Assembly (NCBI GenBank): GCA_041649675.1
Contig: JBAZMQ010000003.1
Location: forward strand, 5,335 to 69,334
Direction of reading: 5' to 3'
Origin: Patescibacteria group bacterium
GTDB lineage: Bacteria > Patescibacteriota > Patescibacteriia > Buchananbacterales > UBA6539
Length of the DNA: 64,000 bases
Shown here: positions 1 through 48,556 of the stretch, in pieces
Numbering within the stretch: the first letter of the stretch is position 1
How the letters are laid out: every line of letters starts with the position of its first letter
Notes under the pieces: model-generated
What the model was told of the DNA's origin: nothing
The model's database searches: none
What the model saw: only the letters and a program-made list of their open reading frames with translations
Made by a program: the position numbers and the translations under genes

Positions 1-14
1 GTGCCTTAAATTTT

Positions 15-89
15 GCCGAGTTAGCTCAGTGGTAGAGCGAAGGACTGAAAATCCTTGCGTCCCCAGTTCAATTCTGGGACTCGGCACCA
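15..89 (+). tRNA. tRNA-Phe (anticodon GAA), CCA encoded
   Basis: Cloverleaf read by eye: acceptor gccgagt/actcggc, D-arm tagctcagtggtagagc, anticodon loop ctGAAaa, T-arm cccag-ttcaatt-ctggg, 3' acca. Confidence 0.85.
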
Positions 90-206
90 GAAGTTTCGGG
101 ATAAACTCCGGACTGCCCCGAAGGGATTCTTTCGGGAAAAATTCTGGAGCCTGTCCCGACGAATGTCGGGGTCCCCAGCCTGCCCGCCGAAACGAAGTGT
201 AGGTGG

Positions 207-230
207 GTTCAATTCTGGGACTCGGCACCA
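207..230 (+). repeat. 24-nt direct repeat of the tRNA-Phe 3' end (gttcaattctgggactcggcacca), 116 nt downstream of the intact gene
   Basis: Exact match to positions 66-89. The 5' part of a tRNA is absent, so this is a fragment and not a second gene. Confidence 0.8.
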
Positions 231-305
231 TTACATATCAAAAAACCCAAATCTGAAAACCCAAAATTTTTGGGATTTGGGATTTGGGTTTTAAACTTAG
301 CTTCG

Positions 306-436
306 GGCTGTGGCTCAGTTTGCGCCAGAGGCACATCCGCCTTTGGCGGAGGCTACCTACCAAAACGACTGTTATATTTTTTAGAATCGTTCAGTCGGGC
401 CGGGAGTGCCTGCTTTGGCCCGTCCGCCTTGACTGT
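306..436 (+). pseudogene. tRNA-Pro-like fragments interrupted by a palindromic element
   Basis: cgggctgtggctcagtt matches the 5' end of the downstream tRNA-Pro (cggggtatggctcagtt). It then diverges into gccagaggcacatccgcctttggcgg. Later gcctgctttggccc resembles the Pro anticodon arm. No complete cloverleaf can be drawn. Confidence 0.4.
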
Positions 437-524
437 TAAATATAAAATAATTGATTAATGGGTTGTTAAGGATTTTTACTCCTTTTTGAACTTTCTAAAC
501 TGGATTTATAATTTTTCAATTTGG

Positions 525-602
525 TCGGGGTATGGCTCAGTTGGCTAGAGCGCCTGCTTTGGGAGCAGGAGGCCGCCGGTTCAAGTCCGGCTACCCCGAC
601 CA
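525..602 (+). tRNA. tRNA-Pro (anticodon TGG)
   Basis: Acceptor cggggta/taccccg, D-arm ggctcagttggctagagc, anticodon stem cctgc/gcagg with loop ttTGGga, T-arm gccgg-ttcaagt-ccggc, then acca. Confidence 0.85.
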
Positions 603-682
603 AGTTGAAAAAAATGAAAGGTGTAGGATTACCTCGACCAAATAATTTTGTCACTGATGCGGGCTTGCCCGCCGAAGCGTAG

Positions 683-757
683 GCGGGTATAGTATAACGG
701 CTATTATGTGAGTTTTCCAAACTCAAGATAGGGGTTCGACTCCCCTTACCCGCTCCA
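683..757 (+). tRNA. tRNA-Gly (anticodon TCC)
   Basis: Acceptor gcgggta/tacccgc, D-arm tagtataacggctatta, anticodon stem tgagt/actca with loop ttTCCaa, T-arm agggg-ttcgact-cccct, then tcca. Confidence 0.8.
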
Positions 758-1034
758 AATTATTGTTTATGTTTTATGTTTATATACTTAAAAGTTTAAC
801 CGATAATAAGCTTTATATTGGTTATAGTAATAATTTGCAAAGGAGACTGAAAGAACATAACTCAGGAAAAAACCTTTCAACAGAATATAGACGGCCTTTA
901 AATTAATATACTATGAGGCTTATTTGTCAATATATGATGCCAAGGCAAGAGAGAAATTTTTTAAAACCGGTTGGGGTAGAAATTACATTAAAAAAAATTT
1001 AAAAAATACTATAAAAATTTAAACAATAATTTGG

Positions 1035-1051
1035 GCGGGTTACCCGCTCCA
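1035..1051 (+). repeat. tRNA-Gly acceptor-stem minihelix copy (gcgggt-tacccgc-tcca), 278 nt downstream of tRNA-Gly
   Basis: The 5' acceptor half is joined directly to the 3' acceptor half plus tcca. It repeats the 3' terminal about 13 nt of the tRNA-Gly gene. Confidence 0.6.
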
Positions 1052-1163
1052 GAATAACAATTAACTTTTGACAATTTACTTTTAACATTAAGATCGCCAA
1101 GTAGCGCGATTTTTTTGGTAAATATAGAGCCTTAATATAATAGTTTTAATATTTTTCTGTTTA

Positions 1164-17033: not shown

Positions 17034-17194
17034 AAGTTACTATAATTATTTAGATTGTGCTGGATAGATCTTATTAATCAGCTTTGTCATTCTGAGGGAA
17101 TAAAGAATTATTGGAATTGTTTGACTCTCTTTTGAGGTATAGACTTAGCTAATCTTTTGTTTCTAACTTCAATAAGATATCACGAAATTAATAA

Positions 17195-42822: not shown

Positions 42823-43563
42823 ATGATCAAAGAATCACTACAAAAATACGGTTTATCCAACAAAGAAGCCGATGTTTATTTGGCGCTTTTGGAGCTTGGT
42901 AAGGCTAAAAGTAGAGAAATTGCCACTAAAACTAAACTGCCCCGCTCAACGGTTTATAGTGTGCTGGAATTTTTAGAAAAGAAAGGCCTGGTTTTTTCTT
43001 TTGATCAAGGTAAAATTAAAACCTACGTGGCCCAAGATCCAGTGAGGATTGTTTCGGATATTGCCAGCCAGGCTCAAGCTATTAAAACAATTTTTCCGGA
43101 ATTAAAAGATTTATATCAAGGGGCTAAAACAAAACCGCAAATAAAATATTATCAGGGCGTTTCCGAGTTAAAAGGAATGTATAATGGCATTCTAAAAATA
43201 AAAGACTTAAAAAGTTATGATATTGTGGCAGCTGAAGGTTATTGGCTCAAGTTAGATGAAAAATTTTTACAAGATTTTAAAAAACGAAGGGCAGAGGCCG
43301 GCATAAAAACCCGATTAATATTGGATAATTCTCAAGCTTCTCTTGAGCGTAAAGCCAATGAAGAAAAAACTAACTCAGAGGTAAAAATTATGCCACCGAG
43401 CATGGCTCAATTTAAAATTTCTGCTGGAACTTATATTTTTAAGGATAAAGTAATTTTTATTGCCTATAAAAAAGAATTAATTGCAGTGGAAATAATTTCC
43501 GAAGAGATTTCCTCGTTACTAAAAATGATGTTTGAATTTTGCTGGCAATTTTTAGCCAAGTAG
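42823..43563 (+). CDS. TrmB-family transcriptional regulator
   Basis: N-terminal wHTH LSNKEADVYLALLELGKAKSREIATKTKLPRSTVYSVLEFLEKKGLV. Confidence 0.75.
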   Translation: MIKESLQKYGLSNKEADVYLALLELGKAKSREIATKTKLPRSTVYSVLEFLEKKGLVFSFDQGKIKTYVAQDPVRIVSDIASQAQAIKTIFPELKDLYQGAKTKPQIKYYQGVSELKGMYNGILKIKDLKSYDIVAAEGYWLKLDEKFLQDFKKRRAEAGIKTRLILDNSQASLERKANEEKTNSEVKIMPPSMAQFKISAGTYIFKDKVIFIAYKKELIAVEIISEEISSLLKMMFEFCWQFLAK

Positions 43564-43662: not shown

Positions 43663-43728
43663 CCGCCATATGCTCCTGTAGCTTCCGCCAAAGGCGGATC
43701 CGCCTTTGGCCCCTCACCATGCCTCTGA
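43663..43728. repeat. left arm of the nested inverted repeats enclosing tRNA-Arg(CCT)
   Basis: Outer IR ccgccatatgctcctg matches caggagcgtatggcgg at 43891-43906. Hairpin gccaaaggcgg-at-ccgcctttggc at 43687-43710. Inner IR cctttggcccctcaccatgcc matches ggcatggtgaggggccaaagg just 3' of the tRNA. Confidence 0.75.
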
Positions 43729-43800
43729 GCCCCTGTAGTTCAAAGGATAGAACAAGAGACTCCTAAGCTCTGGATGGAGGTTCGATTCCTCCCGGGGGCA
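43729..43800 (+). tRNA. tRNA-Arg (anticodon CCT)
   Basis: Acceptor gcccctg/cgggggc, D-arm gttc-aaaggata-gaac, anticodon loop ctCCTaa (4 bp stem plus one mismatch), T-arm ggagg-ttcgatt-cctcc. Confidence 0.7.
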
Positions 43801-43909
43801 TGGTGAGGGGCCAAAGGACATATAATAAGTTTCCCGACGTAAAATCGGGATCCCAATTCCGCTATAGGCAGACATCGGGACAACTCCTACCAGGAGCGTA
43901 TGGCGGGGT

Positions 43910-43948
43910 CTAAGCTCTGGATGGAGGTTAGATTTCCTCCTAAGGGCA
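43910..43948 (+). repeat. partial copy of tRNA-Arg(CCT), anticodon loop through T-arm (ctaagctctggatggaggttagatttcctcc)
   Basis: Near-identical to tRNA positions 33-64, with substitutions in the T-loop and the acceptor 3' strand. 110 nt downstream of the intact gene. Confidence 0.75.
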
Positions 43949-43986
43949 AGTAAACAAATATTAATGATAAACTCGCCATTACCCTT

Positions 43987-44057
43987 GGGCCTATGGTCCA
44001 GTGGTACGACGCCACATTCGCATTGTGGAGACGGCAGTTCGATTCTGCCTAGGTCCA
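43987..44057 (+). tRNA. tRNA-Ala (anticodon CGC)
   Basis: Acceptor gggccta/taggtcc with the G3:U70 Ala identity pair, anticodon stem ccaca/tgtgg with loop ttCGCat, T-arm ggcag-ttcgatt-ctgcc. Confidence 0.7.
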
Positions 44058-44096
44058 GAGGTAATGGCAGGTATAAGAAGTTTTTTATTGATTCAC

Positions 44097-44134: not shown

Positions 44135-44439
44135 TATTTATAAAAAATATTTTACGACTCAATTTTTAGTTTAAATTTAGCCAAAATTTTAATTAACATT
44201 TAAATTATATATATTTTTTTGCCAAATTTAAACAAAATTTTAGAGAATTTAAACAAAATATCTAGGTACTAATATTATTCATTATATATTTATCTAATTT
44301 TAGGTAAATTTTTGAGTCGTTAAATATTTATGTTAAAATTATCAACAGCTAAACCCTTGACAATATTCTGATTATATAATAGAATAGAAAGGCTCTTTAT
44401 TGTAATAATCAGGTTTTGCCTCATCAATTTGAGTGTATG

Positions 44440-44690
44440 CCTGTTTTTTTGACCTTACTCTGGGCTGGTTTTTGTTCTGCCTCTCCAGCTCAGTGCGGGG
44501 CGGCTGTCTTCCGCATATTGTAGCACCCACATCTGGTGCTCACATTGGACCTTGCGTCTATTTTTCTGCGGCGGCAGCTCCATTGATCAGGACCCGATCA
44601 AGTCATTTCTCTTGGGCAAGCTGAATAAGCTTGTGGCATTGGAGTGATTTGATTCGGGTCCTTTGTCATATTCTCTTAATTTTGCTTGAT
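44440..44690. other. GC-rich structured non-coding segment inside an AT-rich spacer, candidate small RNA
   Basis: Local hairpins tgcgg...ccgca and agcacc-cacatct-ggtgct. Long-range IR aggacccgatcaa / ttgattcgggtcct. The 63-aa ORF here has no RBS. Confidence 0.3.
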
Positions 44691-44826
44691 TTTATTACTT
44701 TTTTGACAAGCCTTGAAGTTGATTATATAATACATTCATTATTTAAAGTTATTTAGTATTAATATGGGCTCTTAGCCTGTTCATTATAATTTGAAAATTT
44801 AAATATTACCGCATACTAACACCAAT

Positions 44827-44900
44827 GGGCCCTTAGCTCAGTTGGCTAGAGCGCTTCCATGGCATGGAAGAGGCCAAGGGTTCAAATCCCTTAGGGTCCA
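44827..44900 (+). tRNA. tRNA-Ala (anticodon GGC)
   Basis: Acceptor gggccct/agggtcc with G3:U70, D-arm agctcagttggctagagc, anticodon stem cttcc/ggaag with loop atGGCat, T-arm ggg-ttcaaat-ccc. Confidence 0.8.
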
Positions 44901-44968
44901 TTGGCGTTGGTAGGCGGTGAAGGGAGTCACCCGAACGTAATATCGGATTTGGACTCACCAAAATATCT

Positions 44969-45253
44969 ATGAGTTACTATGTTTATTTTTTGAAAAGCAT
45001 AAAGAATAATAAAATCTATACAGGATACACTAAAATAGACCCAATTTTAAGAATTAAACAACACAACCAGGGAACGGATAAATGGACTAAAGAAAATGGT
45101 CCATTTTTGTTGTTATATTATGAAAAATATTGTTGTAAAAAAGATGCTATTTTGAGAGAAAAATTTTATAAAACAGGTATTGGCAGAAGAATTCACAATG
45201 CAATAATTAGCTCAGTTTCCGCCAAAGGCGGACCCGCCTTTGGCGGGGGCTAG
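44969..45253 (+). CDS. GIY-YIG nuclease-domain protein (UPF0213 / YhbQ-like)
   Basis: YVYFLKS..NKIYTGYT....R...HN.G is the GIY-YIG signature. 94 aa. The last 11 codons (SAKGGPAFGGG) read through the ccgccaaaggcgg palindrome. Confidence 0.7.
   Translation: MSYYVYFLKSIKNNKIYTGYTKIDPILRIKQHNQGTDKWTKENGPFLLLYYEKYCCKKDAILREKFYKTGIGRRIHNAIISSVSAKGGPAFGGG
45219..45246. repeat. palindromic hairpin ccgccaaaggcgg-ac-ccgcctttggcgg
   Basis: 13-bp stem with a 2-nt loop. Same family as 43687-43710 and 337-349. Confidence 0.8.
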
Positions 45254-45332
45254 AGCGCTTCCATGGCATGGAAGAGGCCAAGGGTTCTCAGCCAGAGGCT
45301 GATGCGCCTTTGGCGCAAAATTCCTTAGGGTC
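45250..45332 (+). pseudogene. partial tRNA-Ala(GGC) copy (D-stem 3' side through 3' end) with a 30-nt insertion in the T-loop
   Basis: ctagagcgcttccatggcatggaagaggccaagggttc is identical to the intact gene, then tcagccagaggctgatgcgcctttggcgcaaaatt, then ccttagggtcca. The 5' acceptor/D segment is replaced by the palindrome. Confidence 0.75.
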
Positions 45333-45822
45333 CACCAAAAATAATGTTTCACAAGAAACATTATTTTTGTTTTGGCTATATAATTACTCCCCCTGTTTTA
45401 AATTCAGTTACTTGGGGGGGGGGCGGCTTGTAAAACAAAAAAATAGGGTAGAAGTTTTAAGCTTACTACCCCTGTCAACTAATTGTATCATCCATGATCC
45501 GTACGGGACGTTGACGCGCCCTTGAGCCGTAGCTCAACTGTTGTTTTCCTTTTTTACCGCCTTTAGCAAGCAGTGTTGATCAGAAATAGATATTGGGAAA
45601 CGGGGTCCCCGTTGAAGAGAGATAGGCACCGGCTTAACTTATAAAAAGGAGGTTGTGGGAAGTTTTCTGGGGTGAACAACAGCTATTACCGATGGTATTC
45701 TAGACAAGGATCGGGGCATCTGCCCTTGTGCTTACCACTTCCGCAGACCAGAAAACTTTTTGCAGATGCTTACGCTCCTATTTTACCAAAAAAATGAAAA
45801 ATTTAGAATATACAATTAAGTT

Positions 45823-46581
45823 TTAATTTTTTATCCTAGTCTTTGGTGAAAAATCATAGATAAATTTAAACCAGGTGCGATAGCTATTGGCCAGTTTTTC
45901 ATCGCGCAAAATAAATAAAGTAACATCATCATCAACCTTTTTTAATTCCAGCCCGGTAAAAGTAACAACATAGTCGCCAAAAATATCAATGGCTGATTCC
46001 GTACTGTATTGACTGGGGATAAAACGATATTCACCACCCAAAATTTTAACTGCATCTTGGCCTTTTTCTTTAACTATTTCGTCATAAACATGGTAAAAGG
46101 TAATTTTTTTACGCTTAGCTTCTTTGAGAAATTGATCTAAAAAAGTTTTTAAACGCGGATCAAACCAGCCAAGCTTGGCACCGATCATATAAACATCCTG
46201 GCCGGTTCTTAAAATATCACGCAAATAATTTTTAAAACCTTCAAGGCCGCGATAGATGTAAGCTTCCTGGGTGTGCTCGCGACTTTCATAGCGCTTTCTT
46301 AATTCCGGTAAACTCTGATTTAAATTAATTTCTTTTTCTTTAATTAATTCTAAAAGTTTATCCGGATCAACTGGTGAGTATAAATTTTCATTTTTACTGA
46401 CAATTGGAAAAATTAATCCTTTGTCAATTAAACGATTAATTGCGTCATAAACATTACGGCGATGAATTTCAGCTTTGGAAGAAATTTGTCCAACGCCGGC
46501 TTCTTTTAAATCCAAAAGTGCCTCGTAAATTTTTGCTTCATTAGGTGAGAGACCCAATTCTTGTAAAACTTTTATTGACAT
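45823..46581 (-). CDS. TrmB-family transcriptional regulator
   Basis: LGLSPNEAKIYEALLDLKEAGVGQISSKAEIHRRNVYDAINRLIDKGLI. Confidence 0.75.
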   Translation of the reverse strand: MSIKVLQELGLSPNEAKIYEALLDLKEAGVGQISSKAEIHRRNVYDAINRLIDKGLIFPIVSKNENLYSPVDPDKLLELIKEKEINLNQSLPELRKRYESREHTQEAYIYRGLEGFKNYLRDILRTGQDVYMIGAKLGWFDPRLKTFLDQFLKEAKRKKITFYHVYDEIVKEKGQDAVKILGGEYRFIPSQYSTESAIDIFGDYVVTFTGLELKKVDDDVTLFILRDEKLANSYRTWFKFIYDFSPKTRIKN

Positions 46582-47634: not shown

Positions 47635-48450
47635 TTAGATAGTTTTTAAAAAAGAGGCGGTATCTTTAGGATTAACTTTAATTTTTTTACATAGCGGCCA
47701 AACCAATTCAAATTGTGATTTGATCAATTCAGTAAAATCACGACTGGTTACGGTAAAGCCAAAACTCTCTTGGCGCGAAGAAATAAAAGCGACTTTATCG
47801 GCATAGGCCCAAAGACCCATGTTCCAACTCATGCCTTTGGGTGAGAGCCGAATCTCGCGGTGAAATTCTTTACTTACGCCCAAAAAGGGATATTGTTTGA
47901 ATTTGACGGCTTTGTCCGGCGGCCAAATCGTTCGCAAATAAATTTTTTTACGAATCCTTTTTTTATTATGTTCAGCCAGCCAGTCTTTGCCTAAAACTTC
48001 AATCATTTCCGAAATTGGCCAGATGCAAAGTGTCACAATATTTTCATACCATAAAATATCATTAATCGCGCGCCGAATTCCCTCTTGGCCGCTGAAAAAT
48101 TTTATCTTGGGCTCCAAGTAATTTATTTGTTTTGAAAGCGTGGGAATAATTTCATCCAGTTCTTTTTTTTGTTTCTGTAGATTTTCAATTCTATCTTTAA
48201 CTAGGAAGGTTAAGTTTTTAGCATCAGTCACTCGAAATAATTTTTTATTATCCTGCGACTGCTCGCTGACCAAACCCAAGCTAATTAAAATTTTTAAATT
48301 ATCATAAACTGACGGGCGGGGGATATTGAGATTTTCCGCGAGCTGGCGCGCCGATGAAGTTCCGGTTTCGAGCAAACGTAAATAAATGCGGCTGGTGGTG
48401 TCGGACAAGTTTAGATTTTTAAGAATGTCTTTAAACATACTTTTTGTCAT
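47635..48450 (-). CDS. TrmB-family transcriptional regulator
   Basis: RIYLRLLETGTSSARQLAENLNIPRPSVYDNLKILISLGLV. Confidence 0.75.
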   Translation of the reverse strand: MTKSMFKDILKNLNLSDTTSRIYLRLLETGTSSARQLAENLNIPRPSVYDNLKILISLGLVSEQSQDNKKLFRVTDAKNLTFLVKDRIENLQKQKKELDEIIPTLSKQINYLEPKIKFFSGQEGIRRAINDILWYENIVTLCIWPISEMIEVLGKDWLAEHNKKRIRKKIYLRTIWPPDKAVKFKQYPFLGVSKEFHREIRLSPKGMSWNMGLWAYADKVAFISSRQESFGFTVTSRDFTELIKSQFELVWPLCKKIKVNPKDTASFLKTI

Positions 48451-48453
48451 TCT

Positions 48454-48556
48454 GAATCCCGCGAAGCGGGATGAAGAATCTCTAATTAATTAAGTGGTTA
48501 AATGAGATTCTTCGTCCCGACGTGTCGTCGGGACTCAGAATGACATTTACATTTAG
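48454..48556. repeat. about 100-bp complex palindrome in the divergent promoter region
   Basis: Arm gtcattctgaatcccgcgaagcgggatgaagaatctc pairs with gagattcttcgtcccgacgtgtcgtcgggactcagaatgac. Each arm carries its own cccgNcg...cNcggg hairpin. A partial copy (tgtcattctgagggaataaagaat) lies at 17078-17105. Confidence 0.75.

Follow-up and report, generated by a model that had tools for sequence, protein, structure and literature searches.

In organelles, free-standing homing endonuclease genes insert at the 3′ end of host genes and bring a replacement terminus with them (e.g., the GIY-YIG open reading frame, or ORF, at atp6 in Allomyces), and the original terminus remains as a downstream pseudo-fragment. 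In bacteriophage T4, the GIY-YIG homing endonuclease SegB is encoded in a cluster of transfer RNA (tRNA) genes and recognizes a conserved tRNA motif; it consists of two domains like I-TevI, with a NUMOD3 DNA-binding motif at its C terminus (PMC2330249). SegB cuts T4's own tRNA genes in vitro, protection of which has been ascribed to low expression, and tRNA maturation cleaves between its last codon and its stop codon (PMC2330249). Here we analyze a 64,000-nucleotide stretch from a Patescibacteria group bacterium (contig JBAZMQ010000003.1 of assembly GCA_041649675.1, positions 5,335 to 69,334; hereafter the window, numbered from its first letter), in which several tRNA genes lie beside broken copies of themselves and beside genes for small, stand-alone GIY-YIG nucleases. 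We propose, with a probability of roughly 0.6, that these are homing-endonuclease-like selfish cassettes that live inside tRNA transcription units and are seen here at several stages of decay.

Nine tRNA genes in the window are called by both ARAGORN and Rfam. A first-pass annotation of the sequence had pointed out that three of them, tRNA-Phe, tRNA-Pro, and tRNA-Gly, each have their own fragments nearby. We compared 450 nt on either side of every tRNA in the window with shuffled flanks, in which at most 0.27 self-fragment matches are expected per flank, and found self-fragments near five of the nine: the three already noted, together with tRNA-Arg(CCT) and tRNA-Ala(GGC). The features of these five units are collected in Table 1.

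Table 1. Features of the five tRNA units in the window (nt, nucleotide of the corresponding tRNA)
Feature	Position	Strand	Evidence and remarks
Intact tRNA-Phe(GAA), CCA encoded	15-89	+	ARAGORN; Rfam 70.9 bits
Spacer with GC hairpins (TCCCGACGAATGTCGGG at 154-170)	90-170	+	No ORF remnant detectable
Truncated tRNA-Phe, 3′ part	171-230	+	171-178 = nt 45-52; 207-230 = nt 52-75, exact
Long AT-rich hairpin, then T run	237-300	+	Sequence; after truncated Phe copy
tRNA-Pro 5′ fragment, nt 1-17	304-320	+	15/17 identical
30-nt double hairpin (TGCGCCAGAGGCACA + TCCGCCTTTGGCGGA) in D loop after nt 17	321-350		Sequence
ggcta, tRNA-Pro nt 18-22, 3′ side of interrupted D arm	351-355	+	
tRNA-Pro fragment, nt 23-37	404-418	+	14/15; collinear with other old pieces
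Intact tRNA-Pro(TGG)	526-602	+	ARAGORN, Rfam
tRNA-Pro fragment, nt 67-77 (tacctcgacca), old acceptor 3′ strand + CCA	630-640	+	10/11
gcggg + hairpin strand cttgcccgccgaagcgtag	659-682	+	Partial 5′ acceptor copy; GC hairpin pairing with tRNA-Gly 5′ end
Intact tRNA-Gly(TCC), CCA encoded	683-757	+	ARAGORN, Rfam
GIY-YIG nuclease pseudogene, probable ATG 769	763-1022	+	One frameshift
tRNA-Gly acceptor minihelix, nt 1-6 + nt 65-75, ends CCA	1035-1051	+	3′ part 12/12
tRNA-Arg(CCT) 5′ fragment (gctcctgtagct), then double hairpin, second hairpin truncated	43672-43710	+	10/12
Intact tRNA-Arg(CCT), no encoded CCA	43729-43800	+	ARAGORN; within 15-16 bp inverted repeat
Diverged tRNA-Arg(CCT) copy, anticodon loop to 3′ end	43909-43948	+	24/25 over nt 35-59
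Sigma-70 consensus match	44703-44731	+	12/12, consensus match only; 35 nt upstream of old Ala 5′ fragment
Old tRNA-Ala(GGC) 5′ fragment (tgggctcttagc)	44765-44776	+	11/12 versus first 12 nt
Intact tRNA-Ala(GGC), no encoded CCA	44826-44901	+	~18-bp leader/trailer helix
Intact 94-aa GIY-YIG nuclease gene	44969-45253	+	Directly after tRNA-Ala(GGC)
Truncated tRNA-Ala(GGC), nt 7-76 + CCA	45206-45337	+	Two 30-nt insertions, D loop and T loop: 45206-45217 (11/12), hairpin 45218-45247, 45248-45287 (40/40), T-loop hairpin 45288-45317, 45318-45337
Terminator-like hairpin + T run	45336-45369	+	Consensus match only; directly after old CCA

The tRNA-Ala(GGC) unit retains an intact nuclease gene. No terminator-like site lies between the intact tRNA and this ORF, whose last 15 codons consist of a tRNA D-arm fragment, a double hairpin, and GGCTAG, and an ENA contig covering the unit matches the window with 0 mismatches in 520 nt. 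A second nuclease gene follows tRNA-Gly, in a region (758-1034) that had been taken for mere spacer and is instead a protein-coding GIY-YIG pseudogene. Adding one base near position 893 restores an 86-aa ORF, and an independent Logan assembly of run SRR8542065 carries the same frameshift, with 0 mismatches in 1,105 nt, in the region downstream of tRNA-Gly. The acceptor-only minihelix of tRNA-Gly that had been noticed beyond this region is indeed present and folds with −12.6 kcal/mol (z = −3.1). A tblastn search of the window with the GIY-YIG proteins recovered these two coding regions only, with no further remnant detectable; a marginal match at 234-353 was caused by a translated hairpin and is no coding remnant. 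The tRNA-Phe, tRNA-Pro, and tRNA-Arg(CCT) units are therefore regarded as ORF-less, and the five units make up a decay series in which the ORF is intact (Ala-GGC), frameshifted (Gly), or gone (Pro, Phe, and Arg-CCT).

The ORF-less units can be read from their tRNA pieces. The exact repeat of the 24-nt tRNA-Phe 3′ end reported in the first-pass annotation is found at 207-230 (a 24/24 match to 66-89, with 0.03 such matches expected in shuffles), but the copy begins earlier: the gtccccag of tRNA-Phe (59-66) occurs again at 171-178, and because both segments recur, the copy represents the tRNA from the variable loop to the CCA. A 28-nt hairpin (179-206, GCCCGCC...GGTGGG) is inserted where the T loop begins and splits the copy. 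The tRNA-Pro-like 5′ segment (304-320) was likewise recognized correctly, and the palindrome seen with it, ccgcctttggcgg, is the second hairpin of a double hairpin. The old tRNA-Pro persists in at least three collinear pieces (nt 1-22 with the insertion, nt 23-37, and nt 67-77), and the intact tRNA-Pro is inserted between the latter two.

The truncated fragments look like the resident gene still joined to its own signals, because they keep a promoter-like site or a terminator-like hairpin, and the intact tRNA with its ORF looks like the inserted part; this is clearest for Phe and Ala-GGC. In the Phe unit, for instance, the hairpin and T run at 237-300 may be the native terminator, which would still be connected to the old tRNA-Phe 3′ end. 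We think it probable that the region 1-1060 holds three decayed cassettes and that the window contains two more, one of them intact.

Both window proteins belong to the GIY-YIG superfamily (Pfam PF01541; E = 7.7e-15 for the Gly pseudogene and 4.6e-14 for the protein encoded at 44969-45253), and these paralogues are 41% identical. The catalytic-type residues do not vary among 32 homologues, with Y6, Y17, G19, R28, H32, and E64 invariant or nearly so. The Pfam domain covers residues 3-69 of 94, with no further domain present. An AlphaFold model (pLDDT 89.5) shows the order strand, strand, helix, helix, strand, helix, helix and is confident to about residue 84; confidence is low over the 10 C-terminal residues, for which the hairpin is the coding sequence. 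The protein belongs to the UPF0213/Slx1-type clade of stand-alone GIY-YIG proteins that comprise the catalytic domain only. Of the solved structures, the UPF0213 proteins 1ywl and 1zg2 match it best in sequence (profile E = 5e-6), and Foldseek ranks 1zg2 (3.9e-4) before Slx1 (7cq2, 7cq4, and 6seh; 2.8e-3 to 8e-2; root mean square deviation of 2.2 Å over ~72 residues) and I-TevI (0.6-0.7). Slx1 acts with Slx4 on branched DNA in eukaryotes, and to our knowledge neither UPF0213 nor Slx1 has been linked to tRNA genes. A profile search of 1.84 billion cluster representatives returned 14,874 matches at E ≤ 1e-3, of which 3,161 also reach E ≤ 1e-10; the best 150 listed are mostly 85-125 aa long. No relatives turned up in the viral contigs searched.

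A scan of genome collections based on an alignment of the closest homologues yielded 57 loci from more than 50 genomes and many studies. Nearly all are from Patescibacteria (some labelled as other uncultured bacteria), and the labels outside this group are two flavobacteria (Croceitalea and Flavobacteriaceae) and one Bathyarchaeia. A tRNA gene lies on the same strand within 250 nt of the ORF in 51 of the 57 loci; the six exceptions are four contig ends (three with a partial tRNA at the edge), one locus cut short, and one ORF that follows a transfer-messenger RNA (tmRNA) gene. Eighteen tRNA species, counted by anticodon, are involved, most commonly Pro and Val. In the tmRNA case (L053:2417-3255) the GIY-YIG relative lies 170 nt downstream of the gene and no tRNA is found there, which suggests that tRNA-like genes generally can serve as hosts. 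The distribution is patchy: a given tRNA may have the ORF before it in one genome, after it in another, and have none in a third. No recombinase appears among the gene calls of those related loci that list them.

These loci fall into two mirror architectures, in each of which the tRNA beside the ORF has a truncated copy of itself beyond the other end of the ORF. In type A, an intact tRNA and a short spacer precede an ORF that runs into AGCTCAGTT, followed by the 30-nt insertion, GGCTAG, and the remainder of the tRNA. This overlap with tRNA and hairpin explains the conserved ...SAKGGPASGGG tails of the proteins. In type B, a tRNA 5′ fragment (acceptor strand and D stem) is followed by the 30-nt insertion, a few nucleotides of the 3′ side of the D stem, the ORF, and the intact tRNA, inside which the ORF usually ends. 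The stop codon is a TAG at tRNA nt 8-10 in 15 loci and a TAG at nt 21-23 in 6 more, giving 21 in total. The nuclease gene is thus co-oriented with the tRNA and embedded in its transcription unit, and the end of the ORF overlaps tRNA sequence. Five type A loci show no difference between the old and new 3′ parts over 57-60 nt (100% identity). The same layout of ORF and tRNA is present in two flavobacterial metagenome-assembled genomes and one from Bathyarchaeia (L052:2930-3330, L056:2900-3310, and L054:2880-3320), where a different hairpin (e.g., CCTGCCTGCCGGCAGGCAGGG) occupies the D or T loop of the truncated copy. Separately, in one locus (L012:731-830) a truncated tRNA-Met carries a perfect 18-nt palindrome (CCCCGATGTACATCGGGG) in place of its anticodon arm, and its D stem, T arm, and acceptor are still identical to the intact gene.

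The 30-nt double hairpin follows the consensus TCNGCC-ANA-GGCNGA then YCNGCC-TNT-GGCNGR. Using a pattern that leaves the variable stem positions free, we located 36 distinct sense-strand copies. The variable positions form Watson-Crick pairs within each half in 34-35 of the 36 copies, with three pair types at the most variable pairs, 3-13 and 18-28, whereas an alternative single long hairpin would be paired at its corresponding positions, 3-28 and 13-18, in only 12-13. Covariation thus rules out the single long hairpin, although it is the minimum-free-energy fold of the 30-mer, and two separate 6-bp hairpins are therefore what is conserved. Such conserved pairing points to a folded single strand of RNA or DNA, not to a duplex palindrome. 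When the 9-nt flanks of the insertion are joined, they rebuild the D arm of the neighboring tRNA in 31 of 49 cases (with up to three mismatches), and the insertion point lies after nt 17 (25 cases), nt 12 (3 cases), or nt 13 (3 cases). All four GC-rich copies in the window lie within tRNA fragments, and hairpins also occur in the D or T loops of dead copies away from the ORF, both in the window (45288-45317) and elsewhere (L010, L043, and L049).

We considered whether the interrupted copies could be split, permuted, or intron-containing functional tRNAs, and this can be ruled out: the interrupted copies are incomplete, in each hairpin-bearing copy examined either the 5′ strand of the acceptor stem or the bulk of the 3′ half is missing, and removal of the hairpin from L049 yields no tRNA. 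The same incompleteness, together with the lack of any Rfam intron family, excludes a tRNA intron of the group I or archaeal bulge-helix-bulge kind. Rfam at gathering thresholds returned only tRNAs over the whole window, with no ribozyme, intron, or known motif, and again only tRNAs in E-value mode on 1-1400 and 44300-45900.

A subset of relatives ends differently. The repaired Gly ORF has 391 database matches, and an acceptor minihelix is the regular end structure of this Gly-type subfamily. In L093, tRNA-Gly(GCC) and the ORF are followed by ...AAATTTAGGCGGGC-TCACCCGCTCCA; in L095, tRNA-Gly(TCC) and the ORF are followed by ...TTTGGGCGGGC-CTACCCGCTCCA; and in L102-L105, where the tRNA is tRNA-Pro(TGG), the ORF is followed by the Pro minihelix ...TTTGGACGGGG-TTCCCGACCA. 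The minihelix therefore changes with the tRNA. Among the variants, L106-L109 have an 18-bp inverted repeat around the ORF that contains the GCCCGCC/GGCGGG motif, and L094 is degenerate. A motif of the form GGGCTTGCCCGCC-loop-GGCGGG also recurs upstream of tRNA-Gly (659-682), in the T loop of the truncated Phe copy (179-206), and upstream of a tRNA-Pro fragment in another genome (L051:2905-2950); it resembles a degenerate tRNA-Gly acceptor minihelix.

The spacers themselves tell less. As the first-pass annotation observed, they carry short GC hairpins: TCCCGACG-N-TCGGG is found at 154 and 43832, with a chance expectation of 0, and GCCCGCCGAARCG at 182 and 667. Otherwise they are not alignable to each other, and mutual alignment of the spacers at 90-206 and 43801-43909, the Ala spacer, and the Arg-TCG trailer revealed nothing common except short hairpins. 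A single family of miniature elements defined by spacer sequence is thereby ruled out.

Population data provide a view of structural change. Contigs encoding one identical nuclease (P0010) have the same flanks and differ in structure: in six of them (L078-L083) the D loop of tRNA-Pro holds an 80-nt unit, made up of the double hairpin, gctagc, a further 27 nt, and a 17-nt tRNA 5′ part, and L084 is without exactly that unit and otherwise has the same flanks, forming a filled/empty pair. The ORF units are tandem in L077 (two copies) versus single in L078-L083, and for a second protein, P0005, one versus two ORF copies distinguish L085/L086 from L087/L088, with identical flanks. In the search for orthologous loci, eighteen metagenome loci were found via the downstream asparaginase-like gene, with the tRNA cluster in none and no empty sites; synteny around the window's tRNA cluster is not kept in the relatives reached. 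When flanking genes were looked up by exact protein match, the hits were confined to the same genome and to short contigs ending near tRNA repeats. It had been suggested at the outset that the idea of mobile elements would fail if related genomes carried the same duplications at every orthologous locus and the spacers were unrelated; the same fragments were not seen at orthologous loci and one filled/empty pair exists, while the spacers are indeed dissimilar.

The window has several further features. The tRNA-Arg(CCT), tRNA-Ala(CGC), and tRNA-Ala(GGC) genes have no encoded CCA (43710-43815, 43970-44075, and 44805-44920), and their leader/trailer inverted repeats (9-16 bp) fold with −31, −18, and −24 kcal/mol, respectively, compared with −8 to −13 for shuffles. 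They may act as processing stems or mark the limits of tRNA cassettes that were inserted. At 38 nt after tRNA-Ala(CGC) there is a ttcaCCA followed by a terminator, as if an old 3′ end had been displaced. The intact tRNA-Pro(TGG) is bracketed by an 11-bp leader/trailer complement read from the sequence (ttcaatttggt / accaagttgaa), and its 24-nt flanks form a weak duplex (−7.4 kcal/mol versus a shuffle mean of −5.4). Three TrmB-family regulator paralogues (42823-43563, 45823-46581, and 47635-48450) surround the Arg/Ala/Ala tRNA cluster. Two noncoding stretches beside this cluster, 44430-44680 and 45395-45800, exceed their surroundings in GC content and gave nothing in Rfam; the second, the only one of the two that was folded, does not fold more stably than shuffles (z = −0.57). 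A long imperfect inverted repeat at 48447-48552 (tgtcattctga ... tcagaatgaca) encloses the GC hairpins atcccgcgaagcgggat and gtcccgacgtgtcgtcgggac, the second of which is similar to the tRNA-spacer hairpins; gtcattctga appears again at 17085 (17085-17097), and 48447-48552 may be another small repeat element. The window is bacterial, as its genes for IF-2, RNase Y, GyrA, and FtsH show; ~38% of its bases are G or C.

To account for these observations, we propose the following scheme. A cassette would have three components: a stand-alone GIY-YIG gene of ~85-94 codons on the same strand as the tRNA; a partial or complete tRNA copy, thanks to which one gene stays functional; and a GC-rich structured end, either an acceptor minihelix or the 30-nt double hairpin, the latter sitting in the D loop (or T loop) of the displaced piece. 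The nuclease would break the DNA of a tRNA gene, and host recombination would repair the break from a cassette-bearing copy, with the tRNA sequence serving as homology. The repaired locus would thereby acquire the cassette, and its resident gene would survive as fragments still joined to their original promoter or terminator. In type A the inserted stretch would run from the tRNA 3′ part through the ORF and D-stem stub to the hairpin; in type B it would start with the hairpin and D-stem stub and continue through the ORF to the tRNA 5′ part. The hairpins might shield the displaced half from re-cutting or from recombination that deletes the ORF, or they might be the nuclease's own binding site. 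The nuclease is probably expressed at a low level, since the tRNA supplies the ORF's stop codon and RNase P processing, as we propose, would remove this codon. Later, the ORF would be frameshifted (Gly) or deleted (Pro, Phe, and Arg-CCT), leaving "miniature" scars of 100-300 nt.

A number of points weigh against this scheme. We infer nuclease activity, the cleavage site, and transfer from sequence for all members, and the hairpin's role in the same way. The main difficulty is that intact and interrupted tRNA copies do not differ in their D-loop sequence, so a nuclease specific for the D loop would cut its own carrier too; by the precedent of T4 SegB, a target retained in the carrier would nevertheless be tolerable. 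The protein has no separate DNA-binding domain (NUMOD, helix-turn-helix, or zinc finger) and resembles UPF0213 and Slx1 rather than I-TevI, and sequence-specific homing is therefore not its obvious activity; the folded hairpin or junction may instead be what it really acts on. Neither the population contigs nor the look-ups of flanking genes yielded a pair of alleles distinguished by a complete cassette with its ORF. The spacers of the Phe and Arg(CCT) units, in which no ORF remnant is detectable, are tied to cassettes only by their shared grammar, and how a cassette would gain the matching tRNA piece when it switches target is unexplained by the scheme.

Other explanations share part of this evidence. 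The hairpin module could itself be the mobile unit, REP/MITE-like, entering the loops of tRNA-gene DNA folded as a single strand, with the GIY-YIG protein acting as a structure-specific nuclease in the manner of RAYT for REP or TnpA for IS200/IS605 and only insertions into redundant copies surviving. The covarying stems indicate just such a folded single strand, the protein is similar to Slx1, which cuts branched DNA, the insertions are precise and cost the target no sequence, hairpins sit in dead copies away from any ORF, and an ORF-less 80-nt unit is polymorphic in a population. Yet a cassette usually has one hairpin module and not two ends, and no double hairpin lies outside the tRNA fragments next to these ORFs in the 64-kb window. 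Moreover, the flavobacterial and archaeal hairpins differ and the Gly-type loci use a minihelix instead, and the hairpin sequence is therefore not tied to the protein; we consider a mobile hairpin possible but unlikely. Those different hairpins in other phyla also speak somewhat against a specific protein-RNA scaffold, and with it against a bolder idea in which the truncated tRNA piece and hairpin would be a functional RNA or folded-DNA partner of the nuclease and not a scar. In its strongest form, the hairpin would act as a scaffold and the adjacent tRNA-derived stretch would guide the GIY-YIG protein to matching tRNA genes, much as the ω-RNA or reRNA of IscB and TnpB likewise has its scaffold at the element end and takes its guide from flanking target sequence. 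If true, this would account for the position of the module, always on the side of the ORF that faces the displaced tRNA half, for the two D-stem halves that flank it, and for the way an 85-aa protein finds its target and a cassette is retargeted; we regard both the partner role and its guide version as a long shot.

tRNA genes are the usual targets of integrases, and the first-pass annotation had taken the direct repeats for the classic scar of site-specific integration, left by miniature elements or by serial insertion and excision. On this view, miniature integrative elements or serial phage or island integrations would have duplicated the tRNA 3′ end as attL and attR. Part of that view stands, in that the units appear to be scars or ends of tRNA-targeting mobile DNA, some of them ORF-less miniatures and some the product of serial events, as the old tRNA-Pro in at least three pieces indicates. 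Direct repeats of tRNA 3′ ends do exist at Phe, Arg(CCT), and Ala(GGC). The att mechanism does not stand: tyrosine or serine recombinase genes are absent in, between, and beside the repeat units of the window and from the gene calls of those related loci that list them, 5′ parts are duplicated as often as 3′ parts, the breaks fall in D or T loops, with a conserved hairpin at the D-loop junctions, the cargo, where preserved, is a GIY-YIG gene, and relatives are absent from the viral contigs searched. Site-specific integration is thus very improbable. A domesticated role in host tRNA or mRNA processing, quality control, or defense, with the fragments acting as RNA signals (RNase P/Z sites or stabilizers) for expression of the ORF, would fit the position of the ORF within a tRNA transcription unit, its tRNA-derived stop codon, the conservation of CCA minihelices and hairpin modules that would be structured in RNA, and the size of the family (3,161 clusters at E ≤ 1e-10). 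The patchy distribution described above, and the pseudogenes, ORF-less remnants, tandem variation, and diverged paralogues (41%), are instead hallmarks of selfish DNA, and RNA-level roles of the fragments are compatible with selfish cassettes as well; we find domestication rather improbable. That the window comes from a metagenome-assembled genome, and that short-read assemblies break here (Logan L058, L091, and L092 end near tRNA repeats), raises the question of an assembly or binning artefact or of chance similarity. The Logan and ENA sequences are identical to the window (0 mismatches in 1,105 and 520 nt), the architecture recurs in more than 50 genomes from many studies, and shuffles give at most 0.27 matches per flank, which makes the chance of an artefact close to negligible.

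As selfish cassettes, these units work like free-standing homing endonuclease genes, and by analogy T4 SegB appears to be the closest. Like SegB and T5 F-Tfl, which are co-transcribed with their neighbors, they are free-standing GIY-YIG genes among tRNA genes of the same strand; the loss of the SegB stop codon by tRNA processing has its counterpart in the 21 loci with a stop inside a tRNA; and a universally conserved tRNA motif in the SegB recognition site makes many tRNA genes potential targets. SegB is ~220 aa long, whereas the proteins here are 84-94 aa and consist of the catalytic domain only. SegB resides in a phage, while the cassettes belong to chromosomes, those of Patescibacteria and, in a few cases, of Bacteroidota and Bathyarchaeia. 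Neither a partial tRNA duplicate nor a hairpin module is left behind by SegB, and the motif that it recognizes is the T arm; most junctions of the cassettes fall in the D loop instead. With the atp6-type organellar genes, the cassettes share an invader that carries a copy of the displaced part of an essential gene and a truncated duplicate beside the ORF, but here the gene encodes an RNA, either the 5′ or the 3′ part is duplicated, and the displaced part bears a hairpin insertion. Integrase islands and prophages (attL/attR) likewise target tRNA genes, regenerate an intact gene, and leave a partial direct repeat; they differ in that the units here have no recombinase, a duplication that goes beyond the 3′ end, a cargo of 0.1-0.5 kb, and loop junctions with hairpins. 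REP/RAYT and IS200/IS605 systems similarly combine GC-rich covarying hairpins with a small nuclease gene and have miniature ORF-less copies, but the nuclease here is GIY-YIG and not HUH Y1, with one module per unit, found only inside tRNA loops. Identity with either system is ruled out, the sole ORF being GIY-YIG and each unit usually having one hairpin module.

The literature we searched, whose coverage is incomplete, describes neither GIY-YIG genes nested at Patescibacteria tRNA genes nor the double hairpin, and we have apparently encountered a widespread, undescribed variant of nuclease-driven selfish DNA inside tRNA genes. It would show how an essential RNA gene can be invaded compactly without killing the host, by means of a replacement piece and a borrowed promoter, terminator, and stop codon. 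It offers a testable context for a large stand-alone family of UPF0213-like GIY-YIG proteins, and the covarying double hairpin located exactly in the D loop is a new cis element. If the nuclease proves to be programmable by the adjacent tRNA sequence, or specific for the folded junction, it would be among the smallest targeting nucleases known. For annotation, these loci yield spurious ORFs (with ...SAKGGPASGGG tails) and missed or miscalled tRNA pseudogenes. For Patescibacteria, such cassettes would account for the tRNA fragments and GC hairpins that litter their tRNA loci, which also fits the breaks in short-read assemblies there.

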